DNA of 64,000 nt from Spirochaetia bacterium UBA5763 (GCA_002418835.1 DIEX01000031.1:137617-201616), one strand, 5' to 3'; positions 10,613 to 58,186 are shown, numbered from the stretch's first letter. The notes: a model not told the origin generated them from the letters alone. Numbers and translations are program-made.

Positions 10613-12232
10613 ATGAAGAGTTTAAGGCTTGAAGTTATAATGCTTACTTTGGGAACAGGTTTAGGTGTTCTTGTTCTTATTATATCTATCTGTATATTCG
10701 CCATAAACAGAAACAGCAGCCAGTTGCTGCAGCTGAATGAGGATATAATATTCAAAGACTATGATAAAAACATAAATAATCAGGTGGAGAATGTAATCTC
10801 TTTAATCGGAGCTGTAAGAAAATACCAGATTGCAAATAACCTGTCGGATCAGCAGGGGAAATTACTGGCAAGAGAACTTGTACGTGACCTGAGATATGAT
10901 AAAGAAAACTACTTCTGGATTGATGATTTTGAAGGGATAAATATTCTGCTCCCTCCAAATCCCGCCGGTGAAGGTAAATCGAGGATTAATCTCCGGGATG
11001 TAAATGGAAAGGAGATGGTTAAGGAACTGATAGCAAACGGAAAATTGCCTGAAGGGGGGTACACTGATTACTGGTTTCCCCGCCCCGGAGAAAAAGATGC
11101 AAGCAGAAAGAGAGGGTATACAAAATCTTTTGATGCTTATAGGTGGGTAGTGGGTACAGGGAATTATGTTGATGATATGGAAAAAATTGTAGCGGAGCAG
11201 ATAGCTGCAAATGCCAGGTATATAAGGACTTTATTTTTTGTCGTTCTGGCAGTGGGAGGGGCAATTTCAGTCATAGTTATCATCATGTCTGTATTTTTCG
11301 GTAATTCGCTCTCACGCCCTGTTGTTGAATCAGCAAAGGTGGCGAATAAACTGGCAGAGGGTGATCTCACCGGCAGAATTGATATAAAATATGAAAACAG
11401 AAAAGATGAAGTTGGTACACTTGTAAAAAGTATCAATGCTGCAATTGAAAAACTGGAGAAGATGATCACTTCAATTGCAACAGCTATGCAGAGCCTTTAC
11501 TATGCTACTGATCAGATAAACCAGGGGAACCAGAACCTTTCACAGCGCACAACAGAACAGGCCTCTGCACTGGAGGAGATTGCTTCAACTATTGAGGAAA
11601 CAAGTGCAACAATTACACAGAATACTGAAAATGCAAGACATGCAGACACCACATCCATCGCATCGTATGAATTCGCTGAAAAGGGGGGAGAGCTTGTAAA
11701 TGCTGCTGTCTCATCAATAAATGAAATCAGTGAGTCCAGTAAAAAGATCGGAGAGATTATCTCTGTAATAAATGAAATTGCATTTCAGACAAATCTTCTG
11801 GCTCTCAATGCTGCTGTTGAGGCGGCACGGGCAGGGGACCAGGGGAGAGGCTTTGCTGTTGTTGCGGGGGAGGTGAGAAACCTTGCTCAAAGATCGGGAG
11901 CTGCCGCGAAACAGATAGGTGAGCTTATAAGAGAATCAATTGAAAAGATCGATAAGGGTACTGAAGAGGCAAACAGGAGCGGTGATGCTATTGATGAAAT
12001 CATTAAATCAGTAAAAAATGTGACACGGCTTATCTCTGAGATTACAGCAGCAAGTGATGAGCAGAAGTCCGGTATTGATCAGATTAATACAGCAGTAATG
12101 GAGCTTGATAATATGACTCAGCAGAATGCGGCACTTGTTGAGGAGACTGCATCCGCCAGTGAGGAGATGGCTTCACAGGCAATGAACCTTATGGAGCAGA
12201 TGAAGATGTTCAAAACAGAGAAGGAAGTATGA
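10613..12232 (+). CDS. methyl-accepting chemotaxis protein with sCache_2-type periplasmic sensor
   Basis: 539 aa; TM, periplasmic domain with YFWIDD...[12 protein letters not shown]...WVVGTGNY (single Cache 2 signature), second TM, HAMP, conserved MCP signalling domain ([22 protein letters not shown]). Confidence 0.85.
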
Positions 12233-12285
12233 TTTATTTGTTTAATAAATTTTATTTTTAAGAGTCGGGTTTATCCGTTAATTAT

Positions 12286-14973
12286 ATGGATCTTAAAACT
12301 TATTTAAAGAAAATAATATTTGCCATGCTGCTGTTAATAATGGCGCACAGTTGCGTTCATGCTTCAGAAAAAAAGAATGTTCTGATATTGAATTCATATC
12401 ACCAGGGTTATAAATGGACAGATGATGAAGTGCGGGGCATTGTCAATGGCCTATTTCCTGAACAGGACAATATTAAAACATATATTGAGTACATGGGTAC
12501 AAAATGGAACTTCAGCAGCGAATACTTAAAAGAACTATGTATTCTGTATAAAAAAAAGTTCAACCAGGTAAACTTCGATGTAATAGTATCTACAGATGAT
12601 GATGCTTTTAATTTTCTTAAAAAATACCGTGATAGTGTGTTCGGTAGAGTACCGGTAGTTTTCTGCGGACTTAACTGGGTAACCCCCGGGAAATTGAGCG
12701 GTATGGGGAGCGTCACAGGCGTTAACGAAACTACTGATATTTCACTAAATTTGTATCTTATGATGAAGATTCATCCTGAAGTAAAGAGGATATATGTAAT
12801 AATTGATTCCACAACAACAGGGATTTCAGTATATAATAAACTCATTGAAATAATGCCTCAGTACAGCGGCAGGATTGAGATAATACCTTTGTATGACCTT
12901 CCAATGAAGACTCTTATTGACAGGGTCTCTTCCATTGAAAGTGATTCTCTTGTCCTGCTGACTATTTTCAGCAGGGATGGTTCCGGGCAGTTTTTTGAGT
13001 ACAATGAATACTCTGAAATTATAACCGGTAATAGCAGAGTTCCGGTCTACGGCCTGTGGGATTTTTATCTTGGCCACGGAATTCTCGGGGGTAACCTGGC
13101 AAACGGATATTCGCAGGGCATCACAGCCGGGAATATTGCTTTAAGGGTACTTAATGGCGAGTCAGTGGAAAGCATTCCTGTGATTCTGGATAGTCCCAAT
13201 ACTTACATGTTCGATTTTTTTCAGATGAAGAGGTTCGGGATTGGAAGAGATCTGATCCCCGCAGCCAGTACGGTAATAAATGAGCCTTCGTCTTTCTACT
13301 CTGTGAATAAAAAGATCTTCAGTTTTATTATAGCATTAACTTTTGCATTAACGATTTTTTCAGTGGTGCTGGTGTTAAATATTCGCAGGAGATATATCGC
13401 GGAAAAATCGCTGAAGGAAAGTGTTGAGCAGTACAGTACACTTGTGAACAACCTTAATGTCGGGGTATTCAGGAGCAACGGGGTTCCTGATGGGTGCTTT
13501 ATCCAGGTTAATCCTGTTATGATAAAAATATTCGGATATGATGACAGGGAAGAATTTATAAAAGTTCCAGTCAGAGACCTGTACCAGGACCCTTCCGGAA
13601 GAGATAATTTTTTAAATAACCTGAAAGATTTAAAAACAATAAACAATATTGAACAGCAGATGAAGAGGAGGGATGGTTCGCTGATATCTGTATCTGTTAC
13701 CGGGAGCGCGGTTTTTAATGAAGACGGGACAATAAATTACGTTGATGGTATTCTTGAAGATATAACTGAAAAGAAGAGGATGGAAACGGAAATAAGGCAT
13801 GCCCAGAAAATGGATACAATAGGGACTCTTGCCAGCGGCATTGCTCATGATTTTAATAATGCGCTGGGTGCCCTGATTGGCGCCGTCAGTCTCATGGATC
13901 ATAAACTCAGTACCGGTATACCAATGACTCTGGAGAAGCAGCTTGAGTATATAGCGGTAATGAAAGAATCGGGGGACAAGGGTATCTCCATGGTTAAAAG
14001 GCTCCTCTCTCTTGCAAGAAAGAATGATTCGGATTACAGGTCTTTCAATATAAATGAGGTTGTAAAAAGAGTAGTAGCACTGCTGACGGGTGTGATTGAT
14101 AAGAGCGTATCCGTAAACTCTTCGTATTACGAAGATAAGGCTTTATCAATGGGGGACCCTGCGCAGATTGAGCAGGTGCTTTTGAATCTATGCATAAATG
14201 CCGGACATGCCATGACCATAATGAGGGCGAATCATGAGCAATGGGGCGGCTCACTGAGCATTATGATAAATAAAGTTTTTCCTGACAGGTATATTTCAAG
14301 GACTCACGCTGAAGCATCTGAAAAAGAATTCTGGAGTATATCTGTGGCCGATACCGGAACAGGGATGTCCGGAGAGGTGATAAGCAGGATATTTGAACCT
14401 TTTTTTACAACAAAAGGTGAAGGTTCAGGCACAGGACTTGGGCTGGCAATGGTTCAGAAAATCGTAAATGAGCATCTGGGGTTTATTGATGTATATTCAG
14501 AACCTGGTGTGGGGACAACTTTTAAAATTTATCTGCCGGTTTATTATGGTGAATCAGAATACAGGCCGCCCGTTATAAGCCCGGGTGATTTAAAAGGGAG
14601 CGGCAGAGTTCTGCTTGTTGAAGATGAACTACTGATTATGAAAATTGCTGAGGAGATACTGAAAGACTGCGGATATGAAGTTTACTGTGCTGATAACGGT
14701 GAAAGCGCACTTGAAATTTTCAGAGAGAAATACAATGAAATAAGTGCAGTTGTCATGGACATGGCAATGCCTGTGATGTCAGGGTTTGTGGCTTTCAGTG
14801 AAATGAGGAAAATTTCGCCCTCTGTCCGTGTGCTGATTGCGTCAGGATGCAGGCAGGACAGCAGAGTGGATGAAGTACTTTTATCTGGTGGAGCGGATTT
14901 TATTGAGAAACCATATACTGTTGAAGAACTGGCGCTGGCAGTGAGGAATCTCATAGAGACGGGGAGTATCTGA
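12286..14973 (+). CDS. hybrid sensor histidine kinase/response regulator with N-terminal periplasmic substrate-binding-like domain
   Basis: 895 aa; signal peptide, about 300-aa SBP-like region, TM, PAS, HisKA (HDFNNALGAL), HATPase (GTGLGLAMV), C-terminal REC (LLVEDE...DMAMP). Confidence 0.8.
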   Translation: MDLKTYLKKIIFAMLLLIMAHSCVHASEKKNVLILNSYHQGYKWTDDEVRGIVNGLFPEQDNIKTYIEYMGTKWNFSSEYLKELCILYKKKFNQVNFDVIVSTDDDAFNFLKKYRDSVFGRVPVVFCGLNWVTPGKLSGMGSVTGVNETTDISLNLYLMMKIHPEVKRIYVIIDSTTTGISVYNKLIEIMPQYSGRIEIIPLYDLPMKTLIDRVSSIESDSLVLLTIFSRDGSGQFFEYNEYSEIITGNSRVPVYGLWDFYLGHGILGGNLANGYSQGITAGNIALRVLNGESVESIPVILDSPNTYMFDFFQMKRFGIGRDLIPAASTVINEPSSFYSVNKKIFSFIIALTFALTIFSVVLVLNIRRRYIAEKSLKESVEQYSTLVNNLNVGVFRSNGVPDGCFIQVNPVMIKIFGYDDREEFIKVPVRDLYQDPSGRDNFLNNLKDLKTINNIEQQMKRRDGSLISVSVTGSAVFNEDGTINYVDGILEDITEKKRMETEIRHAQKMDTIGTLASGIAHDFNNALGALIGAVSLMDHKLSTGIPMTLEKQLEYIAVMKESGDKGISMVKRLLSLARKNDSDYRSFNINEVVKRVVALLTGVIDKSVSVNSSYYEDKALSMGDPAQIEQVLLNLCINAGHAMTIMRANHEQWGGSLSIMINKVFPDRYISRTHAEASEKEFWSISVADTGTGMSGEVISRIFEPFFTTKGEGSGTGLGLAMVQKIVNEHLGFIDVYSEPGVGTTFKIYLPVYYGESEYRPPVISPGDLKGSGRVLLVEDELLIMKIAEEILKDCGYEVYCADNGESALEIFREKYNEISAVVMDMAMPVMSGFVAFSEMRKISPSVRVLIASGCRQDSRVDEVLLSGGADFIEKPYTVEELALAVRNLIETGSI

Positions 14974-41720: not shown

Positions 41721-41869
41721 TGTCATTCCGGTTTTGTCGCAGACAAATACCGGAATCTTAATGATAGGAATTAATTTCTGAAAACAGGGGGTAATTTCTT
41801 TTACTTTAACATTCCGGCAGTGCAGCAACGATGCTTGCCTCTGTTCGCACTCCGGCCGGGATGACAAAG
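41721..41869. repeat. structured intergenic repeat, copy 3
   Basis: TTGTCATTCCGG ... CCGGGATGACAAAG termini; internal ATACCGGAATCTTAAT and CATTCCGGCAG modules. Confidence 0.7.
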
Positions 41870-42060
41870 CTTAATTATTTCGTAAAATGCTATAGTCGGC
41901 AAATCCATCTGCGTTCATCTGTGTCTATCTGTGTAAAATTCTTTATTTTAATTCAGCCTGACATTCATGCTTCAATTCTTAACATTATTTTAACATAAAT
42001 CTTATCTAAACTGCATCTGCCGGGGATTATATCCACTCATCATAAGTTCGGATATATAAT

Positions 42061-43830
42061 ATGAAGAAATTTAAACTGCTTGAACTCTTAAAAAGACTCT
42101 TCAGCGATTCAGTGAGCGAAACATACATACTGATAAGCGGAGGGTTAACCGGCTTTTTTATAATTTTCCTGATAAATGCCATGCTTGGCCTCTATTCGGT
42201 GTTCGGGATTTCAACTGACCTTACGGAAAATCTTTCCGGAGTCAACATGGCAAGAAACGCACAGATTACCCTTCACGAACAGGTGCTTGCCTGGGAGAAT
42301 ATACTTATATCAGGTAAAAACTATCCTGACTTTCAGAAAAATTATCATCTCTTTTCCCGGAAAGCTGAGAGTGTTCAGAATACTCTTGTGAACCTGAAGA
42401 TACAGAATGCCCATGATAAAATTATCCATGATGACATAGAGAAGCTTCTTGTTAAACATAAGACGATGACCGGTGAATTCACAAATCACATTGTTGATAT
42501 GAGAGATAAGGAATTCAGAAATGTTGAGGAAAAGATAAAGGCTACCAGCGGTATGGAGGATTCTCTTCTTGAATCACTGAACAGAGTTGCTGCTGAAATT
42601 GAGAACGCGGGGGAGATAAGGAGCCGGAACACCGGTGTCAGGTATCTTGTCATAGCATCGGTATCAGCTGTAATATTTATCGTTCTGATTATCTACTATG
42701 GAAGACAGATCGGCATAAGGCTCATTAAAACACATAATATCCTTGAGAAGATGGTTGTCGAAAGGACCCGGGAATACGTTGAGGCCAACATCTCTCTCCA
42801 GAAAGAGATTGATGAACATAAGGTGACTGAGCAGAAACTTATTGCTTCAAGGAATGAGACAGAGGATAAGAACAGGCTTCTCACTGTGTCAGAAAGACGA
42901 TACAGACTTATAGTTGAAGGGACAAAAGAAATTATATTTACACTTGATGACAACTGGTATTTTAAAACAGCAAATGACGCGATTAAACAGGAACTCAAGA
43001 TCAGTCAGGATGCAATTTCGAAATTCAGGTTTGTGGACCTTATATGTGATGAACTTACTGAAGCCACAATGCTTCGGCGTATTGTAAGTGAAAAGCTTGA
43101 GCAGTCTAAAAAAGAACTGAAGAAGATAAAATTCAATGCGCAGCTTAAGACTCCGAATCTTATTGAACCTGTTGAATTTAAAATCACCCTTGAATTTATA
43201 GAAATTGAAGGTAACCTCGAAATAATAGGAAAAGCCGTGCGCCTTGCGGACGACAGGTTTACTGAATCATTCATCAGCGAAAAGTGTGAGTACCTTATCC
43301 GGAACCTTCTTTTTGAAGCTGATGATATCTCTCACAGGATAACAAACAATCTCCAGAAATATATGGATAAAACTGACATCAATATGATCAGGATCGGACT
43401 TCGTGAAATTATCATCAATTCGATAGAACATGGTAATCTTAATATATCTTTTGAGGATAAAACGGAGGCAATACTTACAGACAGGTATTTTGAATTTGTG
43501 AATGAACGTCAGAATAATCCTGAGTATAGAGATAAACGTGTAAGGATTGAATACATGATATCAGATTCCAAGGCCGTTTATAAGATAACTGACCAGGGTA
43601 AGGGTTTTAATCATAGAAAATTTCTTGCGGCTTCAAGTGATGAAACAGGTGATGTGGCACTTGCTCACGGACGGGGTATTGCCATGGTGAAGAATATTTT
43701 TGATGAAGTGCGGTATAACTTCAGGGGTAACCAGGTGCTTCTGGTTAAGCATTTAAATAAAGATAAAGGTTTTGATGAAAATGGAAGCAGTAGAGAATTC
43801 GGCGAAATACAGGCCATTGAAGTCAGTTGA
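42061..43830 (+). CDS. membrane sensor protein with PAS domain and RsbW/SpoIIAB-type GHKL ATPase (anti-sigma-factor-like serine kinase)
   Basis: 589 aa; TM-periplasmic helical sensor-TM, PAS-like region, C-terminal HATPase with N-box IGLREIIINSIEHGN and G-boxes DQGKGF, GRGIAMV; no HisKA phospho-acceptor. Confidence 0.55.
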   Translation: MKKFKLLELLKRLFSDSVSETYILISGGLTGFFIIFLINAMLGLYSVFGISTDLTENLSGVNMARNAQITLHEQVLAWENILISGKNYPDFQKNYHLFSRKAESVQNTLVNLKIQNAHDKIIHDDIEKLLVKHKTMTGEFTNHIVDMRDKEFRNVEEKIKATSGMEDSLLESLNRVAAEIENAGEIRSRNTGVRYLVIASVSAVIFIVLIIYYGRQIGIRLIKTHNILEKMVVERTREYVEANISLQKEIDEHKVTEQKLIASRNETEDKNRLLTVSERRYRLIVEGTKEIIFTLDDNWYFKTANDAIKQELKISQDAISKFRFVDLICDELTEATMLRRIVSEKLEQSKKELKKIKFNAQLKTPNLIEPVEFKITLEFIEIEGNLEIIGKAVRLADDRFTESFISEKCEYLIRNLLFEADDISHRITNNLQKYMDKTDINMIRIGLREIIINSIEHGNLNISFEDKTEAILTDRYFEFVNERQNNPEYRDKRVRIEYMISDSKAVYKITDQGKGFNHRKFLAASSDETGDVALAHGRGIAMVKNIFDEVRYNFRGNQVLLVKHLNKDKGFDENGSSREFGEIQAIEVS

Positions 43831-44968
43831 ATATGAAAAGATCAGCCATGAGGTAATTTTTAAAAGGGTGGTCTCCCCTTATTACGTCTCTGATTCACAT
43901 AATATTGGAGAGATTGCAGAAGTATTTACTGGCGACATTTCAATACAGGCTGTGGGAGTTGTGGATGATGATGAAAAAACAGCAGGAATTATTATCCGCA
44001 ACGAGCTTTTTTCACTTATAGGTCAGAAGTTCGGCAGGGAACTTTATCTCAATAAAAGCATCAGAGAAGTTTTAGTCACACCGGCAACTGTATACTACAA
44101 AAGAAATACCTTTTCTGTTATTGATGAACTTGCTGATGAGCTGAAATCAGAGTCCAACAGGTTTTTTGTTCTTGTTGATAGTGAGAACAGGTACAGAGGT
44201 ATTATCTCGACATCCAGTCTTGTCCTTTTTCTTTCCGAGATGATGAGAAGGGAACTGGCAGCTGCAAGGAGAATACATTCCGCTATTATTACAGGTAAAA
44301 TAGAAATTTTCGGTGAGAAGTTTGATGTAGCGGGTTCCACTCTGATGGCTGGTGAAACCGGCGGTGATTTCCAATATATAAAAAAGATCGGTGAAGGGAG
44401 ATGGTTTATCTCTCTATGCGACGTGTCAGGTAAAGGATTGAATGCCGGGCTTATATCTGTGGCTGTGAGCAGTATGTACACAGTTTACGATTTTACACGC
44501 GGAATTGGTGAACTCATAAGGAGTATCAATTCGTATATAAATGATCTCTTCGGCGGGGAGATATTTCTCACGGGAATTTTTATGGAGTTCAATGAAAACA
44601 ATGGCGAACTTACCGTGTATGATATGGGCCACTCAATGTTCTATATATTGAGAGACGGGAAGGCCGGCTCACCTTCAAAGCAGAAAGATAATATCCCCCT
44701 GGGGATATCGAAAGATACAGTACCGGTGAAATCCTCTATCAGGCTTGAAAAGGGGGATATAATTATTACATATACCGATGGAATGCCTGAACAGTGCAAT
44801 ATGTCCAATAAGAGTTTCGGCGAACAGAAACTCCTATCTCTTGTGATGAAATACAGAAACAGTGCTCTGAACCAGATACAGGGTATAATTGCCGAAGAGC
44901 TCAACTCATGGAGAATCGGGAATGCCCAGGGCGATGACATGTCGCTTTTATTGCTCAGAGTAAAATGA
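43772..44968 (+). CDS. PP2C-family (SpoIIE/RsbU-type) serine phosphatase with N-terminal ligand-binding-like domain
   Basis: 398 aa; GDFQY...LCDVSGKGLNAGLISVAVSSMY and C-terminal DGMPE / GDDMSLLLL motifs of SpoIIE-type PP2C; 5' end overlaps upstream gene by up to 59 nt (alternative ATGs at 43775, 43781). Confidence 0.7.
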   Translation: MMKMEAVENSAKYRPLKSVEYEKISHEVIFKRVVSPYYVSDSHNIGEIAEVFTGDISIQAVGVVDDDEKTAGIIIRNELFSLIGQKFGRELYLNKSIREVLVTPATVYYKRNTFSVIDELADELKSESNRFFVLVDSENRYRGIISTSSLVLFLSEMMRRELAAARRIHSAIITGKIEIFGEKFDVAGSTLMAGETGGDFQYIKKIGEGRWFISLCDVSGKGLNAGLISVAVSSMYTVYDFTRGIGELIRSINSYINDLFGGEIFLTGIFMEFNENNGELTVYDMGHSMFYILRDGKAGSPSKQKDNIPLGISKDTVPVKSSIRLEKGDIIITYTDGMPEQCNMSNKSFGEQKLLSLVMKYRNSALNQIQGIIAEELNSWRIGNAQGDDMSLLLLRVK

Positions 44969-45054
44969 TAATAATCACATAATTTCTTAATATAATTTTT
45001 ACATGAATATATTTAAGATTAGTTACTATAGCAAATAACGAAATGATTATCACG

Positions 45055-45166
45055 TTGTCATTCCGGCCGTAGTGACAACGAAGTGCCGGAATCTCATAAA
45101 ATTATTACAATGAGATTAGCTTCCAGCTCTTCCTGCGGTCGCCCACAGCCTTCGCGGGAATGACAT
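45055..45166. repeat. structured intergenic repeat, copy 4 (upstream of pstS)
   Basis: CGTTGTCATTCCGG..TGACAACG hairpin, GCCGGAATCTCATAAA..ATGAGATTAG, ...CGCGGGAATGACA terminus. Confidence 0.7.
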
Positions 45167-45226
45167 ACTGTGTGATTACTCAATCGTAACACGCTATAAT
45201 AAAATATTCCAGGAGGAATTCTAAAG

Positions 45227-46057
45227 ATGTCTTTCAAAAAAAGTGTTATATCAATGCTTACAGTTGCGGCAGTTGCAGCTTCAGCGGCTGCAGGAATAGC
45301 AGCAGAGAAGGGTAAAATTAGCATCAAGGGATCAACAACAGTTCTCCCTATTACAATGAAGGCCATAGACACTTATAAATCTATTAAGCCTGAAGTATCT
45401 ATCTCTGTTGAAGGGAGCGGTTCAAGTAACGGGATAAAAGCTCTTATCGGTAACAACTGCGATATAGCAAACTCTTCTCGTGAGATGAAAAAGGAGGAGA
45501 TGGCACAGGCTAAACAGGGCGGGCAGAAGATTAAAGAGATAGCTGTTGCTCTTGATATGATCGTCCCTGTTGTACACCCGTCAAACAAAGTTAAGAACCT
45601 TACAAAAGATCAGCTTAAAGGTATCTTCGAAGGTTCTATAACAAACTGGAACCAGGTAGGCGGCGAGGACATGAATATCGTTGTTGTATCAAGGGATTCA
45701 AGCTCAGGTACATTTGAATGCTGGCATGAACTTGTAATGTCTAAAAAAGATGTAAGAAAAGATGCTCTTATGCAGGCATCAAACGGCGCAGTTGTAAGTA
45801 CAGTTGCTAATAACAAAAAAGCAATCGGTTACATCGGTTTCGGTTACATGGATAATGCAGTTAAAGGACTCGATGTTAATGGCATCGTCCCCACAATCAA
45901 AAATGGTAAAAGCGGAAAGTATCCTGTTTCAAGAAAGCTTTATATGTATGTGAATGAAAAGAACTATTCATCAGAATCAAAAGCATTCGTAAACTATCTT
46001 CTTTCAAAAGAGGGTCAGAAGCTTGTTGTTGAAGCAGGTTATATAACAATCAAGTAG
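45227..46057 (+). CDS. pstS: phosphate-binding protein PstS-family (periplasmic PBP)
   Basis: 276 aa; signal peptide; IKGSTTVLPI and EGSGSSNGIKALI motifs typical of PstS/PhoT-type phosphate-binding proteins. Confidence 0.75.
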   Translation: MSFKKSVISMLTVAAVAASAAAGIAAEKGKISIKGSTTVLPITMKAIDTYKSIKPEVSISVEGSGSSNGIKALIGNNCDIANSSREMKKEEMAQAKQGGQKIKEIAVALDMIVPVVHPSNKVKNLTKDQLKGIFEGSITNWNQVGGEDMNIVVVSRDSSSGTFECWHELVMSKKDVRKDALMQASNGAVVSTVANNKKAIGYIGFGYMDNAVKGLDVNGIVPTIKNGKSGKYPVSRKLYMYVNEKNYSSESKAFVNYLLSKEGQKLVVEAGYITIK

Positions 46058-46131
46058 CACATGCCGGCTGTTATGTCGCTGTGTTATATGCACTGACTTT
46101 ATGAATTTTACATGAAGCAACTCCTATTCAA

Positions 46132-46166
46132 AAAGGGCTGTTCCAACCGGGCAGCTCTTTTCTTTT
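46132..46166 (+). terminator. candidate terminator after pstS
   Basis: AAAGGGCTG-11 nt loop-CAGCTCTTT (one G-U pair) followed by TCTTTT. Confidence 0.35.
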
Positions 46167-46252
46167 ACAACTTTACGGAAAATTAACAGAAACATTATAA
46201 AAGAACAACAGGTTAAGGTTTAACTTGTCTGAATTTAAAAATGGAGGATTTC

Positions 46253-47758
46253 ATGTTCAGATTAAAACAATCAGCCGTTAAACCGGCTTTTATCGTAATG
46301 TTTTTTTTAATTATTACAGGGGCCGCATACAGTGTAAGCGGAGCTCTCTCTTCAAGAGGTCCGGTGAATAATTCGTACAGCGGAAAACCGGCAAAATATG
46401 TATTTCTTTTTATCGGTGACGGGATGGGGCTCCCTCAGGTCTCAAGCGCGGAGATATTCGCCGGTTCCATGAAGGGTGGAAAGTATCCCGATGCTCCCAG
46501 GTCTCTATCGTTTACATCATTCGGCGCACAGGGTATAACAACAACCCACGACGCCAGTTCATTTATTACAGATTCAGCTTCCTCCGGAACTGCAATTGCA
46601 ACCGGTAATAAAACTCTGAATGGCGTAATATCAATGGATGTCGCAAAAAAGAATAAGCTGAAGTCAATTGCCACAATGGCTAAAGAGAAAGGGATGAAGG
46701 TCGGTATTATTTCTTCTGTTTCAATTGATCACGCGACCCCTGCGGTTTTTTATTCTAATGTGCCCTCAAGAAAGATGATGTATGAGATAGGCCTTCAGAT
46801 GTTTGACAGCGGGTTTGACTATTTTGCCGGGGGATCTGTTGTTGATCCGGACGGGAAAAAAAGCAAGATGGAAAATAAACCGGGTAATCTTTTTGATTAT
46901 GCAAAAAATAAGGGTTATAAAATTGTTAAGAGTAAAAGCGAATTTTCGCGTCTTAAAAGCGGCAACGGCAAAGTCTGGGCAATAACTGAACAGGTTGCAG
47001 ATGATTCAGCAATGCTTTATGAAATAGACAGAAGTTCCAGTGTACTTTCTCTTAAAGATTTTACAAAAAAGGGGATAGAGCTTCTTGATAACGAAAAAGG
47101 CTTTTTCATGATGGTTGAAGGTGGAAAGATCGACTGGGCCTGCCATGCAAATGACGGCATGAGCGCCATAAAGGATGTATATGCCTTTGACGATGCTGTA
47201 AGGGAAGCAGTTGCCTTCGCTAAAAACCACCCTGATGAAACACTTATAGTTGTTACAGGTGACCATGAATGCGGCGGCATGACTGTGGGATTTGCAGGTA
47301 CAAAGTATGACACTTTTTTTCAGAAGCTTAAGAAACAGAATATGTCATACATAAAGTTTGATGAAACGCTTGATGAAATCAAAAAGAAAAATAGTGAACT
47401 GAAGTTTGATGAAGTTGTAAATCTTGTTTCAAAACACTTCGGCCTCAATACTGACAAAAATGATAAAGAGATGGGACTCACCGATTATGAAATGCAGCTT
47501 CTTAAAGATGCATTTGCACAGGTGAATAATAAAGAGAAGAGTGATTCCCTGTATCTTCTTTATGGAGAGTATAATCCCCTCTCTGTTACTGTAACTCATA
47601 TCTTAAACAGAAAAGCCGGTATAGGCTGGACATCTTATTCACATACCGGGGTTCCCGTGCCCACTTATGCTAAAGGTACCGGGGAGGAGATTTTTGACGG
47701 CTATTATGACAATACTGATATTTTTAAAAAACTTACCGCTGTTATGAATCTGCAATAG
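46253..47758 (+). CDS. phoA: alkaline phosphatase (PhoA family)
   Basis: FIGDGMG metal-site motif, TDSASSGTA active-site serine region, GDHE near C-terminus; ORF track starts 46241 but ATG 46253 has GGAGGA RBS. Confidence 0.85.
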   Translation: MFRLKQSAVKPAFIVMFFLIITGAAYSVSGALSSRGPVNNSYSGKPAKYVFLFIGDGMGLPQVSSAEIFAGSMKGGKYPDAPRSLSFTSFGAQGITTTHDASSFITDSASSGTAIATGNKTLNGVISMDVAKKNKLKSIATMAKEKGMKVGIISSVSIDHATPAVFYSNVPSRKMMYEIGLQMFDSGFDYFAGGSVVDPDGKKSKMENKPGNLFDYAKNKGYKIVKSKSEFSRLKSGNGKVWAITEQVADDSAMLYEIDRSSSVLSLKDFTKKGIELLDNEKGFFMMVEGGKIDWACHANDGMSAIKDVYAFDDAVREAVAFAKNHPDETLIVVTGDHECGGMTVGFAGTKYDTFFQKLKKQNMSYIKFDETLDEIKKKNSELKFDEVVNLVSKHFGLNTDKNDKEMGLTDYEMQLLKDAFAQVNNKEKSDSLYLLYGEYNPLSVTVTHILNRKAGIGWTSYSHTGVPVPTYAKGTGEEIFDGYYDNTDIFKKLTAVMNLQ

Positions 47759-51057: not shown

Positions 51058-51420
51058 TTGAATTACACAATCAGCACAATGAAGGATTATATTCTGCTTC
51101 AGGTGTACGGAGAAGTTGACCGTGTGGATGTATTGACAGCGGCATCAGTTGTAAGAGATCTTGATATAAGTCATCCCGAAACCGTGGTGCTCGATGTTGA
51201 CGGCCTTGAAGACGCAAGAGAGATGTTTTATCATGCCGCGATTATCAATACGATAAAAAAGGAGATAGAACATCGGGGCGGTTTATTCAGGATACGGGCT
51301 GAAAAGAAATCAATCAGAAGCTACCTCAGCATGACCGGCCTTGAGAGACTTTTTGTCTTTGATGAACCGCGGATAATGCCTTCTGAAGAGGGGGAATCAT
51401 TTGAACTCCAGAGATGTTGA
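51058..51420 (+). CDS. STAS-domain protein (anti-sigma-factor antagonist-like)
   Basis: 120 aa; SpoIIAA-like pattern (LDVDGLEDAREMFYHAAIINTIKKEIEHRGGLFRI...MTGLERLF); TTG start in ORF track, alternative ATG at 51079. Confidence 0.55.
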   Translation: MNYTISTMKDYILLQVYGEVDRVDVLTAASVVRDLDISHPETVVLDVDGLEDAREMFYHAAIINTIKKEIEHRGGLFRIRAEKKSIRSYLSMTGLERLFVFDEPRIMPSEEGESFELQRC

Positions 51421-52420: not shown

Positions 52421-52741
52421 TTAATTTGTAATTTCGATTCCATTTGTTTTAATCTCCCATACAAGCGGATCTGCTTCTGTAAACTGATCAGTCCTATAGG
52501 GTGCAGGTTCAATTCGATCGTCAATAGCGTTTAAGATTTTTAAGATTCTCAACCTTTCCTGGTAACGGTCTTCAGAAAAATCATCAGATATAAAGGCCAG
52601 ATCTATGTCGCTCCATTCGTGTTCGGAACCTGTTGCATATGAACCGAATAAATAAGCCTGTTTAATTGAAATATTGTTTTCATGAAGCAGTTTAATAGAT
52701 TTACGGACTTTAGCTATTATTTCATTATTGATATGAGCCAT
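52421..52741 (-). CDS. minimal nucleotidyltransferase (MNT, MntA-like antitoxin)
   Basis: 106 aa; GSYATGSEHEWSDIDLAF matches Pol-beta NTase GS...D.D motif. Confidence 0.8.
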   Translation of the reverse strand: MAHINNEIIAKVRKSIKLLHENNISIKQAYLFGSYATGSEHEWSDIDLAFISDDFSEDRYQERLRILKILNAIDDRIEPAPYRTDQFTEADPLVWEIKTNGIEITN

Positions 52742-53130
52742 TGATAGAATCCTCTAATTTCTGTGATCTCTTTTTCAGTAAAATCCCGCGTGCATAACCT
52801 GCGGAAGCTTTGTTTGATATCCGGATAACGAGCTTCTATGTTGAAGGTGCTTATTTTAATCAGGCTCTCCCTTTGTTCCTGTGATAATTCAAGTCCTGCG
52901 GATTGAGCGAGCCTTTCAAGATTATGAATCATTGGAGCGTGTTTTTTCAGTTGTCTGACATAGTATGCTTTGAGCAGCTTTTCAAGGGCAAGGTGCCCGA
53001 AGAATAAAGAGTAGGAATAATCTTCCTTTTCAAAAAGATCTCCGGTTACCTTTAAGTCATTTTTCGCTTCTTCAAGCCAGTAAGCTGTAACAGCCATCCA
53101 GTCAATATTATCAGTCAAAAGAAACTCCAC
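52717..53130 (-). CDS. HEPN-domain protein (HepT-like toxin)
   Basis: 137 aa; R-x4-H motif (VRQLKKH); overlaps MNT gene by 25 nt. Confidence 0.75.
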   Translation of the reverse strand: MEFLLTDNIDWMAVTAYWLEEAKNDLKVTGDLFEKEDYSYSLFFGHLALEKLLKAYYVRQLKKHAPMIHNLERLAQSAGLELSQEQRESLIKISTFNIEARYPDIKQSFRRLCTRDFTEKEITEIRGFYQWLISIMK

Positions 53131-53202: not shown

Positions 53203-54819
53203 CTACAGCTCCCCGATCCTCAGAACAACAGTTGCCTCGTAAGGCGCAAGTGTCATAGACAGAGATGTGAAGTGCTCACGTACAGTGCGGTGTGTTGAGA
53301 ACATCACTCTCCACTGTCCCCTGCCGCCCGCGTGAACAGATCTTTCTTTGCCCGAGAAATTAAGAACAATAAAAAAAAGTTCATCCTCATAACTGCGGAA
53401 ATAACCAAGAGTGTTGTTAAAGCCCTTAAGTTCCGGAATGAATTCACCTTCGCTTAATGCCCTGTGTTTCTTCCTCAGCTGGATGAGCGATCTGTATAGA
53501 TTGAGCATTGAATACCTGTCAGCAGTCTCCGCTTTTACATTGAGTTTTTTGTAATCGCTGTCAACAGGGAGCCAGGGCCTCCCTTTGGTGAACCCTGCGT
53601 GCTCTTTACTGTTCCATAACATCGGTGTGCGTGAGCAGTCACGCCCTCTGTACACAGGCCAGTATCTCTTCCCCAGCGGATCAACAATCTCGCTCCTGCT
53701 TAACCGCGTATTCTTCATACCCAGCTCCTCGCCGTAGTAGAGAAAAGGTGTCCCCTTTATTGTAAGGAGAAACACCGCAGCCAAGCGCGCCCGCTTCTCA
53801 GAGTCAGCTCCGCCGAGAAACCTGCTCCTGCTGCGGGGCTGGTCGTGGTTTGAAAGCACATTACAGGGCCATCCGTTCTCAGGCATTGCCCTGTACCAGT
53901 TTCTGATGCAGCTATAAAAACGTCTTGCGCTCCAGAGCCTGTACATGATGGAAAAATCAAAAGCCATATGCAGCTCGTCAGTACCGTTCCCCATGAACGA
54001 AGCAGCAAGCTCCGGGTTCCCCGGCGGCAGAGTGAATACTTCACCAACTGTCATCCGCGCGTCATATTCATCAGCAGCAGATCGGAGTTCCCTGAGATAT
54101 TCATGAACCTCCGGGCGGTTCCGGTCGTATTTATGCTTTTCAGGATCAAGTGGTTTAATAGTGAATGGATTGCTGCGGAATTTATCATCTTTTACAAACC
54201 AGTTAACAACATCGAGCCTGAAGCCGTCAACACCACGATTGAGCCAGAACCGCATCATCTTATGTATCGATTTTCTCATGTCCGGGTTGCGCCAGTTCAG
54301 GTCAGGCTGCTCCTTCAGAAAAGAATGAAGGTAATACTGCTCAGTGCGCGGGTCCCACTCCCATGCACTGCCGCCGAATGCCGACTTCCAGTTATTGGGG
54401 GCTTTTCCGTTTACAGGATCGTGCCAGATATACCAGTTGCGCCTGCGGTTGTCCCGCGATGACCGTGATTCAATAAACCATTTGTGCAGATGTGATGTAT
54501 GGTTAACCACAAGATCCATTATAATCTTTATACCCCGTGAATGCGCTCCGGCGATAAGCCTGTCAAAGTCATTAAGAGTCCCGTAGCATGTATCAATATC
54601 GTAGTAGTCAGATATATCGTAACCGAAGTCATACATCGGTGAAGGATTAACAGGGGAGAGCCACACAGCATCAACTCCGAGCCATGAGAGGTAATCGAGT
54701 TTTTCAATAATCCCCGGTATATCCCCAACGCCGTCGCCATTGCTGTCATAAAAACTCCGGGGATAGACCTGATAGATTACACCTCTCTTCCACCACGGTG
54801 CGGCAGACATTTTAAGCAA
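53203..54819 (-). CDS. GH13 alpha-glucosidase / oligo-1,6-glucosidase-family enzyme
   Basis: 538 aa; GVDAVWLSPV, DFGYDISDY, GFRLDVVNW (nucleophile Asp), VGEV, LSNHDQPR conserved regions of GH13. Confidence 0.85.
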   Translation of the reverse strand: MLKMSAAPWWKRGVIYQVYPRSFYDSNGDGVGDIPGIIEKLDYLSWLGVDAVWLSPVNPSPMYDFGYDISDYYDIDTCYGTLNDFDRLIAGAHSRGIKIIMDLVVNHTSHLHKWFIESRSSRDNRRRNWYIWHDPVNGKAPNNWKSAFGGSAWEWDPRTEQYYLHSFLKEQPDLNWRNPDMRKSIHKMMRFWLNRGVDGFRLDVVNWFVKDDKFRSNPFTIKPLDPEKHKYDRNRPEVHEYLRELRSAADEYDARMTVGEVFTLPPGNPELAASFMGNGTDELHMAFDFSIMYRLWSARRFYSCIRNWYRAMPENGWPCNVLSNHDQPRSRSRFLGGADSEKRARLAAVFLLTIKGTPFLYYGEELGMKNTRLSRSEIVDPLGKRYWPVYRGRDCSRTPMLWNSKEHAGFTKGRPWLPVDSDYKKLNVKAETADRYSMLNLYRSLIQLRKKHRALSEGEFIPELKGFNNTLGYFRSYEDELFFIVLNFSGKERSVHAGGRGQWRVMFSTHRTVREHFTSLSMTLAPYEATVVLRIGEL

Positions 54820-57472
54820 GCCCCGTGTCTTTAAGGAGCTTCCCGATTATGCTGTCAGCAGTGAAGAATTTAGACCGCTCCAGTGCCGCGATGTTCATCT
54901 TATCCCTTGTTCCGGTTTTGCTGAAGTGAATAACAACAGCATCAGCCATCTTCTCTTTAGTGTTAACAAGATATCCCGATTTTTCATTCTCGATAATATC
55001 TCTTGGCCCCTTGGTGTTGTATGATACAACCGGGCATCCGCAGCTGAAGGCTTCAACTATTACATTGCCGAATGTATCAAACCTTGAAGGGAGTATAAGA
55101 AGGTCCGCTGCTGAATATATATCGGGGAGAGAGTTGTGTTCAACCCATCCCAGAAATTTTGCGTCCGGTATCTCCTTCTTCAGTTTTTCCTCTTCCGGGC
55201 CTTTCCCTGCGATGACAAGTTTGAGTCCGGGGATTGCTTTTTTTGCTTTGCTGTAAATAAAGGGGAGTTCGTTCACGCCTTTCTCTTCGCTGATCCTCCC
55301 TACATAAAGGAGTACAGGAGTTTTGTCGTCAATATCGAACATCTTCTTCTTCGTTGCATCGGTCTTTCTGAATTTCTCATCAACCCAGTGTGAAGTCAGT
55401 TTAACCTCTGTTTTTTTGAACTCCATCTCCGGCCCGCTGAACCACTTCTTCTGTTCCTTGTTAAGAACCAGCACTCCGTCATAAGACCTGTAGAAACCGC
55501 GAAGTATCCTGCGCAGCCGGTTCATCGCAGGGTCAGAGAAGTTCAGAGTATCCTTTGCAAATGTGATCCAGTCAGTGTGAACAAAGAAGTATGCAGGCAC
55601 AGAATATGCTTTTTTCAGAAAGATTGAGATGAGTCCCATGGGCCCCTCAGTGGAGCAGAGTATCCTGTCGTATTCCCCCTGTCTGAACTGTTTGTGTATA
55701 TCGAGAATATTCGGTATCCTTATAGGCTGGTCTTTATAGAACGGGGGAGTGTAGACCGCAACAGGCTTTACCACCACAAGGTGCTCCTCCGGCTTAAGTG
55801 TGTCGCTGCATACAAGCAGGTCAATGGGGAGATCCCTCTCCTGTATCTCATCCAGCATGTGGCGCAGTGACATTGAGACTCCGTTCCCGTCTTCGAGTGT
55901 GTCTGTGAGCCAGAGCATCCTCTCAGGGAACCTCAGGTCATCAAGTTTTTCGGCAAAGGCGTTCAGCATCCCCCGTGCTTTGTACATCACCCTGCTTGAA
56001 GCATAACTTGCTGATGAAATAACTGTTGAAGCAAGAAACGGGAAGGTGAGCCCGTCAAGGAAATCCGGGGCATTGATGCTTGATATTCCGTTTCTGACAC
56101 CTTTATCTTTCTTCCCGTTGCTTTCGAATATCCGTCTTACATGGCCAGGTACTTCCAGTGTGCTTATAAATCCTTCCGCGCTTTTAAGCGCGTCCTCACC
56201 GCTTAAGTTGAGCGCTTTAAGTTTATCGTTAAGCCTGCTGAACATCAGGTTGAAAAGAGACCTGTGTATCTCCTCAATTGATTTATCAAAGGCCTCGGCC
56301 ATTTTCTCCGGAGTTTTATTCCGTACGTCAGCCATTGAGGCCGCCTCTGTGAATATAGGCTTGTAGTCTTTCGGCACCATCAGTTTCTTTGCAAAGCCGG
56401 GTGCATCTCCCAGCAGACATTCATGAAACAGTGTGAGAAAGTTCACGGTGAGCTTGTGCCTCTGGAGTTCAGAGAACCCGTTGATTACCATGAAAGAGAG
56501 GAGCTTATCCTGTGTGGAACCTTTGTGAAGCAGCAGCCTCAGAAGTCCGGGGTCCTTCATGTTCATCACAATCTGGCAGAAGTAATCGAGAAAAGAGACA
56601 GTCATCTTCTCCGTGTTGTTGTAACCACCGAAGGGCGCCGCGTCACCGTCAAGGAGTGTCTCAAGCGCCAGTACGCTTGCGGTTTTGTCCTTCAGTTTTT
56701 TCTGCAGGTTTTTCACGTAAAGCCTTGTGCCTGTGAGTCCGGTAAATATCCCCATGTGGGAATCTGAGCCGCCGTAGCCTCTCCTTGTGTACGGGTTGCG
56801 GCAGTAGTCTGAAGCTTGAATGCAGAACTTCTTTTCATACTTTTCAATGGAGTTCCGGGTCATGGACTCCACCCATTTTTTAACAAGGAGGTTCTGCCAT
56901 GTGTCCCTTTGCCCGTTAATAACCTCAAACCTTTCAAAGACAATGGACATCTTGTCAAAGAACTCCATGGGGAGCTGTTCATTATCCTGGTAGTGGTAGA
57001 GCGGGTGCGCCCAGATTGTGGGTATATTGTTTTCCAGAGCGAATCTCTGGAACCTGTAAGTATCATGTCTCAGTTTAAGGAGCTTCTCCTCCTGCGCCGG
57101 TGTAAATCCGTAGGCAAGTACATGTATCTTCGCGTCATAGTCCGGGACAGTACAGCTGAATTCAGCCCCTGTAAGAATATCGTATCCTTTATCCTGCAGT
57201 TCATAGCAGGACCGGGCGTTGTTGTGATTTGTCACAGTGAAGGTGTCGCATTTGTGTTCTTTCAGTGTGGCTATAAGGTCTTCAGGGGGGAGCCATGTCT
57301 CCGGGATATTAAGCATCCTCCCCACAATCTCATCAGGTTCGCTGCTGTTTCTGTCGTGGCAGTGAAGGTCAATGGTGAGAGCATCTTTTTCCGGAAACCT
57401 CAGGGATTGCTCGTAATTAAATACCGACATCTCCCTGTTGATCTTTTCAAAAAATGTTTCTCTGTAATTCAT
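54812..57472 (-). CDS. fusion protein: N-terminal PHP-family phosphoesterase domain + C-terminal GT4 (group 1) glycosyltransferase
   Basis: 886 aa; PHP motifs IDLHCHDRNS, VTNHNN, GAEFS, WAHP, GGSDSH in first about 250 aa; C-terminal about 380 aa GT4 with GRISEEKG...LVIAGKGPEE...FGNVIVEAFSCGCPVV (E-x7-E region); stop overlaps GH13 start by 8 nt. Confidence 0.7.
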   Translation of the reverse strand: MNYRETFFEKINREMSVFNYEQSLRFPEKDALTIDLHCHDRNSSEPDEIVGRMLNIPETWLPPEDLIATLKEHKCDTFTVTNHNNARSCYELQDKGYDILTGAEFSCTVPDYDAKIHVLAYGFTPAQEEKLLKLRHDTYRFQRFALENNIPTIWAHPLYHYQDNEQLPMEFFDKMSIVFERFEVINGQRDTWQNLLVKKWVESMTRNSIEKYEKKFCIQASDYCRNPYTRRGYGGSDSHMGIFTGLTGTRLYVKNLQKKLKDKTASVLALETLLDGDAAPFGGYNNTEKMTVSFLDYFCQIVMNMKDPGLLRLLLHKGSTQDKLLSFMVINGFSELQRHKLTVNFLTLFHECLLGDAPGFAKKLMVPKDYKPIFTEAASMADVRNKTPEKMAEAFDKSIEEIHRSLFNLMFSRLNDKLKALNLSGEDALKSAEGFISTLEVPGHVRRIFESNGKKDKGVRNGISSINAPDFLDGLTFPFLASTVISSASYASSRVMYKARGMLNAFAEKLDDLRFPERMLWLTDTLEDGNGVSMSLRHMLDEIQERDLPIDLLVCSDTLKPEEHLVVVKPVAVYTPPFYKDQPIRIPNILDIHKQFRQGEYDRILCSTEGPMGLISIFLKKAYSVPAYFFVHTDWITFAKDTLNFSDPAMNRLRRILRGFYRSYDGVLVLNKEQKKWFSGPEMEFKKTEVKLTSHWVDEKFRKTDATKKKMFDIDDKTPVLLYVGRISEEKGVNELPFIYSKAKKAIPGLKLVIAGKGPEEEKLKKEIPDAKFLGWVEHNSLPDIYSAADLLILPSRFDTFGNVIVEAFSCGCPVVSYNTKGPRDIIENEKSGYLVNTKEKMADAVVIHFSKTGTRDKMNIAALERSKFFTADSIIGKLLKDTGLA

Positions 57473-57642
57473 AAATTCTCCGGTTCTTTATTCTTTTCTT
57501 ATAATTTATTCTTCTGCGGAGAATAAACCCTGTTTTTGTTAAGAAAATATAAGGGGGATGTTCAGATTCTGTTAATAATCTGCGGAGTTACAGGAGTTAA
57601 TGAATTCTATGATGAAATTATGTAATGCTATATGTTATGATG

Positions 57643-58089
57643 CTATATAAAACCCGATTTATGTCTAAAAGCAGCCTTACCGGAGCTGTATGCTAAGTTT
57701 GACGGAGAGGAATCGGATAAAATTCGAAGCGGTATAGGAGCAATACAGGAAACAGCCGGCAGGAGAGATAAAGCTGATGTCAGATCTGATTCTCTCGCAG
57801 CATTAAGGATAAATGATGATATAAAGAAATTATATCCTGTGCGTTGTTTCCTTGCGGCTTTTACGTTCCAGAGGTTCTTCTCTTCTGCTGTTAATAATTT
57901 CCATCTATTTACAGCTTCAGCAAAGAGGTCACGGTTCTTCTGCTGCGCTTCTGTTCTGGGATTGCGGGGGATTACATGTGACCTTACACATGTTTTACCC
58001 ATCCTGTTGTAATAAATAAGCCTTCCGATATTTCCTTTGAAATTCATAAATGTGGGGTTGAGTTCAGCTTTTGCCATTGCTTTCTCCAT
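57643..58089 (-). CDS. hypothetical protein
   Basis: ORF 57643..58167; probable start at internal Met (MEKAMAKAEL..., or ATG 58077 with GGAG RBS); no recognisable domain. Confidence 0.35.
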   Translation of the reverse strand: MEKAMAKAELNPTFMNFKGNIGRLIYYNRMGKTCVRSHVIPRNPRTEAQQKNRDLFAEAVNRWKLLTAEEKNLWNVKAARKQRTGYNFFISSFILNAARESDLTSALSLLPAVSCIAPIPLRILSDSSPSNLAYSSGKAAFRHKSGFI

Positions 58090-58186
58090 TTTATCTGTAT
58101 TTATATATACGGCAGAAGAGGAGATTTTGTGAAAAAATTTTCGGCGGGGATGTGCAGTTTTTTGCATGAATACAGGAATTATGATG

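Follow-up and report, generated by a model that had tools for sequence, protein, structure and literature searches.

A PHP–GT4 fusion protein coupled to a GH13 alpha-glucosidase: a candidate phosphate-starvation operon in Spirochaetota and Bacteroidota

The window considered here is a stretch of 64,000 nucleotides (nt) of DNA from Spirochaetia bacterium UBA5763 (GCA_002418835.1, DIEX01000031.1:137617-201616). Its minus strand carries two abutting genes. The first, an open reading frame (ORF) at 54812-57472, encodes an 886-amino acid (aa) protein in which a PHP metal-dependent phosphoesterase domain is fused to a retaining glycosyltransferase of family GT4. The second, at 53203-54810, encodes a GH13 alpha-glucosidase of 535 aa counted from the ATG at 54810 (PF00128, 486 bits). 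An earlier sequence-only reading had placed both ORFs at these coordinates, where they are indeed present. It is proposed below, as a tentative reading given slightly less than an even chance, that this is a Pho-switched two-gene operon in which the fusion protein carries out a lipid renovation resembling that of the PlcP–Agt system.

The two-gene operon and its products

The junction of the two genes reads ...GGG CTT GCT TAA A ATG TCT..., with the ATG at 54810 lying 1 nt past the TAA stop. The sequence-only reading had described an overlap of 8 nt between stop and start. The genes do abut, but such an overlap requires a TTG start at 54819 when the ATG at 54810 is available instead. The GH13 proteins of relatives are also 535 aa long and begin MSxxxWW(K/R) from an ATG at the equivalent site, which lies one to a few bases past the upstream stop or overlaps that stop by 4 nt. 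The ATG at 54810 is preferred for this reason. Whichever start applies, the two genes are translationally coupled. No terminator-like site was found between them, and a signal peptide is absent from both proteins.

The PHP domain occupies aa 1-285 (56618-57472, minus strand). Its match to Pfam is partial and below the cut-off, with PF02811 scoring 14.2 bits against a gathering score of 26.4 (E 0.055), and a profile search of Protein Data Bank (PDB) sequences with the N-terminal half gave no match. The PHP identity is nevertheless accepted because of three further lines of evidence: invariant motifs, structural matches and a profile match to a second clade of fusion proteins.

In an alignment of 30 full-length homologues, reaching down to 50% identity, the residues H37-C-H39, D40, N82-H83, E104, H117, A155-H156-P157 and S236-D237-S238-H239 are invariant. 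H37, H39, H83, E104, H117, H156, D237 and H239 correspond to the metal-ligand motifs of PHP enzymes, from which the role of each residue in the metal site is predicted. A profile-profile comparison (hhalign) with the second clade gave E 1e-51 over aa 31-301, with every motif position aligned; the motifs of that clade, DLHVHS / TDHN / E / H / AHP / SDDH, fall on the ligands of the fusion protein. Members of the second clade are themselves recognised by Pfam in part, PF02811 being matched by 11 of 27 and PHP_C by nine of the same 27 (best E 7.8e-6 and 9.4e-6, respectively).

An AlphaFold (AF2) model of aa 1-520 has a mean predicted local distance difference test (pLDDT) score of 73. Foldseek matched this model to the PHP domain of RNase AM (7ug9, E 3e-6, TM-target 0.56), with further matches to V. 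cholerae RNase AM (9etk), BAD_1165 (3e0f), Cv1693 (2yb1) and PolC at probabilities of 0.87-1.0. The match to PolC is presumably made through its own PHP domain. By these matches the modelled domain adopts the distorted (beta/alpha)7 barrel of the PHP superfamily. The proteins of the RNase AM type (7ug9/9etk, 3e0f, 2yb1) resemble aa 1-285 in fold and in their conserved metal-ligand residues. They differ in being chains of 206-287 residues without a GT4 domain, with identities of 11-15%, and none is described as a lipid enzyme. The claim of a complete PHP domain bearing HCH, NH, E, AHP and SDSH motifs is therefore upheld by motifs, fold and profile together, and the failure of the N-terminus to model as PHP, named beforehand as one refuting case, did not occur. 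The domain is acidic, with an isoelectric point (pI) of about 5.8.

Between the PHP and GT4 domains lies a conserved domain of approximately 230 residues that had gone unmentioned in the earlier reading (aa 286-518; 55919-56617, minus strand). It belongs to no known family, giving neither a Pfam match nor a PDB profile match. The domain is all-helical in both AF2 models. In the full-length model of the fusion (overall pLDDT 85, predicted template-modelling score 0.83), pLDDT is 81-92 across most of it. The alignment of 30 homologues shows many invariant residues here, and the domain is strongly basic in every homologue, with a median net charge of +9.5 and a pI of 9.5. Anchoring of the fusion protein by a transmembrane segment was considered and ruled out; the maximum 19-residue hydropathy is 1.2 and no such segment is found. 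The product of the first gene is taken as a cytoplasmic enzyme of three domains, its PHP phosphoesterase being of the trinuclear-metal kind.

The GT4 domain comprises aa 519-886 (54812-55918 with the stop codon, minus strand). Pfam assigns Glyco_transf_4 to aa 530-678 (45 bits) and Glycos_transf_1 to aa 708-860 (111.6 bits), both above cut-off, and finds no HAD domain in the fusion protein. The conserved C-lobe motif GRxSxEKG is present as G725-R726-x-S-x-E-K731-G732. In the E-x7-E motif the first acidic residue is an aspartate (D799-x7-E807), a feature conserved in both clades. The GT-B fold lies nearest to MshA, BshA, GlgM, PimB', sucrose-phosphate synthase (SPS) and PimA in Foldseek, with TM-target values of 0.72-0.78 to MshA, BshA and PimB'. 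The fold does not reveal the substrate, as these neighbours mix soluble anionic and lipid acceptors. The best NCBIfam matches are to generic GT4 models, with scores far short of the cut-offs, and the SPS models are not among the top matches. Neither the nearest structures nor the NCBIfam models discriminate between classes of acceptor.

The closest solved relatives of the GH13 protein are the Halomonas alpha-glucosidase HaG (3wy1, 452 bits), the alpha-glucosyltransferase 6aav and oligo-1,6-glucosidases; sucrose isomerases are also near. Its motifs GFRLDVVN, VGEV and SNHD align with the nucleophile Asp, the acid/base Glu and the transition-state Asp of 3wy1, including the row of the E271Q mutant. 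From its sequence the enzyme is predicted to be a catalytically intact, active-looking alpha-glucosidase. The nucleophile is followed by Val here and by Thr in HaG; Val at this position presumably marks an alpha-1,6-type specificity. No equivalog cut-off was reached in NCBIfam. HaG and the XgtA-like 6aav are like this protein in length, in catalytic residues, in their scores of approximately 450 bits and in being of the cytoplasmic disaccharide type. Some enzymes of the HaG/XgtA type are strong transglucosidases. No coupling of such enzymes to a PHP–GT4 gene is known, in contrast to the GH13 protein described here.

Distribution and conserved gene neighbourhood

When aa 1-518 alone served as the query, 1043 proteins were returned; the 120 best listed are nearly all 880-900 aa long and carry GT4 domains. 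An exhaustive HMMER search of cluster representatives returned 693 clusters. These include a second tier at approximately 30% identity, in which only the PHP part is matched and the C-terminus is also GT4. In a scan of one genome per species, the close clade has 386 carrier genomes. The best 80 of these 386 are Spirochaetota/Leptospirales and Bacteroidales metagenome-assembled genomes (MAGs), Dysgonomonas sp. HGC4 and one Deltaproteobacterium, with Spirochaetia bacterium UBA5550 (96%) as the nearest relative among them. Full-length fusions occur in more than 100 homologues among the matches listed, from independent assemblies. The fusion is genuine, as had been claimed, and an assembly artefact is ruled out.

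A few damaged copies stand as exceptions among the intact fusions and may be either assembly errors or decay. The copy of the UBA5550 MAG, 96% identical (L017:3713-6369), has a frameshift within the PHP domain, and another (L066:349-2369) has one at the boundary between the N-terminal region and GT4. In a third (L169:6001-7722; loci L169/L170) the ORF stops within the GT4 N-lobe beside a contig end. A stand-alone N-terminal module could not be established, since both candidate ORFs (P0128 and P0134) end at contig ends or within the GT4 N-lobe.

The second clade (L088-L167) is a large sister family of PHP–GT4 proteins of about 800 aa, matched by more than 550 metagenome stretches. Its linker is shorter and unrelated, and a GH13 partner is absent. 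Homologues are annotated only as 'glycosyltransferase'. Neither a PHP–GT4 fusion nor a PHP enzyme active on lipids was found described in full-text literature searches. A C. thermocellum paper that mentions a PHP domain, a glycosyltransferase and phosphate starvation was set aside as irrelevant, its PHP domain coming from a CpsB-type capsule locus.

The neighbourhoods of 166 loci were surveyed, 83 from the close clade (tier 1) and 83 from the second clade through a metagenome scan (tier 2). Of 69 informative loci, tblastn places the GH13 gene next after the fusion gene, in the same orientation, in 61; the other eight have enough flanking sequence but lack it. No other gene is comparably conserved in an all-against-all clustering of the neighbouring ORFs. 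The fusion gene and GH13 form a strict two-gene module spanning two phyla, Spirochaetota and Bacteroidota, and the coupling that the earlier reading had seen in one genome is conserved across them.

Besides GH13, the only recurrent neighbours are phosphate-starvation genes and membrane-lipid genes. At least one of pstS/C/A/B, phoU, PiT, phoH and phoA lies within approximately 12-13 kb in 17 of the 83 tier-1 loci and in 17 of the 83 tier-2 loci, searched with fixed seeds; by our own rough estimate, 1-2% of random loci would have such a neighbour. The gene family stands beside Pho-regulon and lipid-head-group genes far more often than by chance.

The arrangements with Pho genes are independent of one another. 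In two Spirochaetota loci (L060 and L032) the gene divergently adjoins pstB-phoU, a phoB-like response regulator, pstC-pstA and a sensor kinase, with pstS following in some cases. Three Bacteroidota loci (L065, L069 and L082) have it oriented divergently to porin-pstSCAB-phoU or to a PiT transporter beside pstSCAB. In L068 and L075, which lack GH13, porin-pstSCAB follows it in the same orientation. Elsewhere it is surrounded by PiT, a PhoH-like gene and pstCA (L031). In the Deltaproteobacterium (L046), genes for a PhoB/R-like response regulator and a sensor kinase, together with pstS, come after it. In the window itself, a PstS-like phosphate-binding protein (45227-46057, plus strand; tblastn with PstS seeds and Pfam) and an alkaline phosphatase (46241-47758, plus strand; Pfam) lie approximately 7 kb beyond GH13.

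The lipid genes are of several kinds. Of the 83 tier-2 loci, 12 have a Methyltransf_24 and phosphatidylserine (PS) decarboxylase pair just before the gene, 16 have an adjoining DUF2334 protein and seven a radical-SAM protein. A pair of PS decarboxylase and Lgt occurs in six loci across both tiers. Genes for OlsB-like and OlsA-like acyltransferases lie directly upstream of the homologue in L169 and L170, and OlsB-like genes are also found in L036, L037 and L042. Acyltransferases of the OlsB/OlsA type make ornithine-type phosphorus-free lipids. In L085 a UDP-glucose 6-dehydrogenase gene abuts the homologue, with an alkaline phosphatase nearby, and a supply of UDP-glucuronate is implied. Among the recurrent neighbours in the 166 loci there are no osmolyte or osmotic-stress, glycogen, capsule or tyrosine-kinase genes, and no metallophosphoesterase gene. 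As a side observation, the stretch just upstream of one homologue (L169:1-5930) encodes a polyphosphate kinase (PPK1), an exopolyphosphatase (PPX) and an ROK-family protein along with the OlsB/OlsA-like acyltransferases, and is a compact phosphate-economy island.

A candidate Pho box and other features of the window

Upstream of the fusion gene, at 57537-57575 on the minus strand, lies a candidate Pho box of the form TTAACA-N5-TGAACA-N5-CTTATA-N5-TTAACA. Read from 57575 to 57537, the copy in the window is TTAACA gaatc TGAACA tcccc CTTATA ttttc TTAACA, four hexamers with an 11-bp periodicity. Direct hexamer repeats with this periodicity are a hallmark of PhoB/PhoP boxes, the PhoP site of B. subtilis being TT(A/T/C)ACA every 11 bp. 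When the upstream sequences of related spirochaete loci are aligned, the block is conserved. The full four-hexamer pattern occurs once in the window, with none expected.

There are two occurrences of the three-hexamer core in the window, again with none expected, the other being at 41979-42006. This belongs to a second copy, TTAACA-N5-TTAACA-N5-CTTATC-N5-TGCATC (41979-42017, plus strand). It stands approximately 55 nt upstream of a same-strand cluster (42061-47758, plus strand; Pfam and tblastn), which is treated as context and not as part of the PHP–GT4 operon. Besides the PstS-like protein and the alkaline phosphatase, this cluster encodes a sensor with HATPase_c_2 and a CBS+SpoIIE phosphatase, both assigned by Pfam.

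With up to two mismatches allowed, the core occurs 21 times across the 1.2 Mb of fetched loci, as against 0.8 in shuffled sequence. Every occurrence lies upstream of the PHP–GT4 gene (12 spirochaete loci), the sensor/SpoIIE operon (L001, L011, L014 and L020), pstB (L032 and L060) or pstS (the deltaproteobacterial L046). The element is thus shared with pst operons. Of 27 Bacteroidota loci, 18 carry a TTAAYM-N5-TTAAYM motif approximately 90 nt ahead of the gene, against a background density of 0.045 per 200 nt. Taken with the gene context, these upstream sequences make it appear that the operon belongs to a phosphate-starvation regulon.

Other features of the window can be recorded beside these. 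A STAS protein resembling an anti-sigma antagonist is encoded at 51058-51420. The anti-sigma-type HATPase_c_2 sensor and the SpoIIE phosphatase behind the second element (41979-44968), taken with this STAS protein, resemble a partner-switching cascade that shares its control with the PHP–GT4 operon. The promoter element is immediately preceded on its own strand by an ORF of 174 aa (57643-58167, minus strand). Pfam gives this ORF one weak match, far below cut-off and not credible, and NCBIfam gives it none. Between GH13 and a gene of the metallo-beta-lactamase fold, at 52421-53130 on the minus strand, are genes for an MntA-like nucleotidyltransferase and a HEPN protein, which by their sequences resemble a type VII toxin-antitoxin pair. 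They are not found at this position in the related locus L001. Two ORFs of similar length at 10613-14973 were considered as a paralogous pair and ruled out, as they encode a methyl-accepting chemotaxis protein and a hybrid histidine kinase. The sequence GTCATTCCNG has seven copies in the window against 0.5 expected (1552, 4566, 23495, 41722, 45057, 45155 and 49114). At least three of these (41722, 45057 and 45155) are intergenic, with an inverted CCGGAAT arm close to those at 41722 and 45057. The sequence resembles a repeat of the repetitive extragenic palindrome or miniature inverted-repeat transposable element type.

Possible function and competing explanations

The replacement of phospholipids by phosphorus-free lipids is a major bacterial answer to phosphate scarcity, known chiefly from work on PlcP and Agt in Proteobacteria. 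In that operon a Pho-regulated phospholipase C makes diacylglycerol, from which the GT4 enzyme Agt forms monoglucosyl (MGDG) and glucuronosyl (GADG) diacylglycerol (PMC4796936). Often plcP and a glycosyltransferase gene share one operon preceded by a Pho box, with other genes for non-phosphorus lipids beside it, in hosts that include SAR11, Phaeobacter, Sinorhizobium, Agrobacterium and Pseudomonas (PMC4796936). The genes described here are alike in pairing a phosphoesterase with a GT4 enzyme, in the Pho-box-like site upstream, in having pst/Pho genes and phosphorus-free-lipid genes near, and, in the relative L085, in an implied UDP-glucuronate supply. They differ in that the phosphoesterase is a PHP enzyme, PlcP being a calcineurin-like metallophosphoesterase, and in that the two activities are fused via a basic helical domain. 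The close clade also has GH13 as an obligatory partner, and its hosts are Spirochaetota and Bacteroidota.

By analogy with PlcP–Agt, the basic helical domain would dock the enzyme on the anionic surface of the inner membrane. The PHP domain would then strip the phosphate or phospho-head group off phosphatidic acid, phosphatidylglycerol or phosphatidylethanolamine to leave diacylglycerol and recyclable phosphate. With a UDP-sugar as donor, the fused GT4 domain would at once turn the diacylglycerol into a glycolipid free of phosphorus. As the weakest step of the scheme, GH13 may transglucosylate or trim an alpha-glucosyl head group, or may salvage alpha-glucosides. The partners of the second clade vary (DUF2334 deacetylase-like proteins, a methyltransferase with PS decarboxylase, radical-SAM proteins), a hint that they edit the head group of the product. 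Plant SFR2, an enzyme of a glycoside hydrolase family, builds oligogalactolipids. With SFR2 as precedent, a GH13 transglucosidase that extends a glucolipid is a speculation. The boldest form of the scheme is a widespread and hitherto unrecognised lipid-renovation machine in one polypeptide. Held at the membrane by the new basic helical domain, the PHP enzyme would serve as phospholipase C or as phosphatidate phosphatase and channel diacylglycerol to its own GT4 domain, and GH13 would elaborate the glucolipid head group as a transglucosidase independent of nucleotide sugars. This form is rather doubtful. If true, it would be the phosphate-starvation lipid switch of Spirochaetota/Bacteroidota and would contain the first lipid-active PHP enzyme.

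Several points weigh against renovation of lipids under Pho control. We know of no PHP-family enzyme that acts on lipids, and none appeared in the literature searched. The nearest PHP folds belong to an RNase (RNase AM), a putative metal-dependent phosphoesterase (BAD_1165) and a protein whose structure was solved with AMP and phosphate in place (Cv1693), none of them a lipid enzyme. Lipid glycosyltransferases resemble the GT4 domain no more closely than do MshA, BshA, GlgM and SPS, whose acceptors are soluble and either anionic or phosphorylated. The most conserved partner is a cytoplasmic alpha-glucosidase, which has no established place in glycolipid synthesis. Approximately 80% of loci have no Pho gene in the retrieved sequence. 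The occurrences of the element at the glycosyltransferase promoters of related spirochaetes are not independent of each other. A sigma-70-like TTAACA-18-TATATT overlaps the element, and because of this -35/-10-like pair an alternative sigma factor rather than PhoB could read it.

The likeness of the GT4 fold to enzymes with soluble acceptors that are anionic or phosphorylated, namely MshA (inositol phosphate), BshA, GlgM (glucose-1-phosphate) and SPS (fructose-6-phosphate), raises the prospect of a soluble product. GT4 would glucosylate a small acceptor such as a sugar phosphate, glycerol-3-phosphate or inositol phosphate, PHP would dephosphorylate the product, and GH13 would hydrolyse or isomerise the resulting alpha-glucoside. 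Under Pho control, such a route would free phosphate from metabolite pools and park carbon in a neutral glucoside. The closeness of GH13 to disaccharide-type alpha-glucosidases, a transglucosidase and sucrose isomerases fits this, as does the want of signal peptides. Synthase and phosphatase in one protein is moreover an established design: SPS–SPP, trehalose-phosphate synthase–phosphatase (TPS–TPP) and the glucosylglycerol-phosphate enzyme GgpPS all unite the two, and SPS is itself a GT4 enzyme. Their phosphatase is of the HAD type, however, in contrast to the PHP domain here, and in the SPS and TPS fusions it is C-terminal to the synthase, whereas the PHP domain is N-terminal. They have no helical linker domain and serve the response to osmotic stress, where here there is a Pho context and a helical domain. 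A soluble glucoside leaves that basic domain unexplained, together with the PS decarboxylase, OlsB/OlsA-like, Lgt and UDP-glucose dehydrogenase neighbours. Synthesis and hydrolysis of one glucoside by one operon would be futile, and a plain phosphatase would release phosphate at lower cost. With no osmotic-stress genes recurring in the survey either, this route is considered unlikely. The same survey gives no support to the compatible-solute or alpha-glucan-primer route put forward in the sequence-only reading, as the recurrent neighbours are Pho-regulon and membrane-lipid genes and neither osmotic-stress nor glucan genes; the promoter, too, has its Pho-box-like element in common with pst operons. 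An alpha-glucan or maltose-1-phosphate metabolism that would link carbon storage to scarcity of phosphate and is thus tied to phosphate status, with GT4 acting like GlgM or an archaeal glycogen synthase, PHP dephosphorylating maltose-1-phosphate or glucan and GH13 trimming, could draw on GlgM and Pyrococcus glycogen synthase as structural and sequence neighbours of GT4, and on GH13 as a family of alpha-glucan enzymes. It is judged very improbable: none of glgA/B/C/P/X or glgE recurs in the 166 loci, the 535-aa GH13 is of the oligo-1,6-glucosidase/alpha-glucosidase type and not a GlgE or debranching enzyme, and the lipid-gene neighbours would again go unexplained.

The PHP domain may also be thought to regulate or assist the glycosyltransferase, either as a CpsB-like tyrosine phosphatase that controls it, which the sequence-only reading had offered as its alternative, or by hydrolysing a nucleoside diphosphate (NDP) or pAp-like product to lift inhibition and recycle phosphate. 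CpsB-type PHP phosphatases are known in polysaccharide loci (PMC2777267). CpsB/Wzh is a small stand-alone PHP protein beside a BY-kinase (bacterial tyrosine kinase) and a capsule locus; here PHP lies within an 886-aa protein, no tyrosine-kinase or capsule genes recur in the 166 loci, and CpsB is not among the best PDB fold matches, the nearest being RNase AM, BAD_1165 and Cv1693. The AMP and phosphate bound by Cv1693 and the activity of RNase AM do make nucleotide-type substrates plausible for this branch of PHP, and so favour the clearing of a product. A module of 500 aa with many invariant residues would be excessive for the clearance of an NDP. A regulatory or product-clearing role is accordingly held to be most unlikely.

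Lipid renovation by the PHP::GT4 fusion would, if its mechanism holds, be a new enzymatic variant of the lipid response to phosphate starvation, a subject that to our knowledge has been little studied in the carrier lineages. For Spirochaetota, Leptospirales among them, and for Bacteroidales and further lineages rich in anaerobes, the family may represent an equivalent lipid route. Were this so, the chemistry of the PHP superfamily would be extended to lipids, a large set of proteins labelled only 'glycosyltransferase' would gain a function, and the gene would serve as a marker of phosphate stress in sediments, digesters and gut-like habitats. Even with a soluble acceptor, a Pho-regulated module of PHP::GT4 and GH13 would constitute a defined and testable problem.

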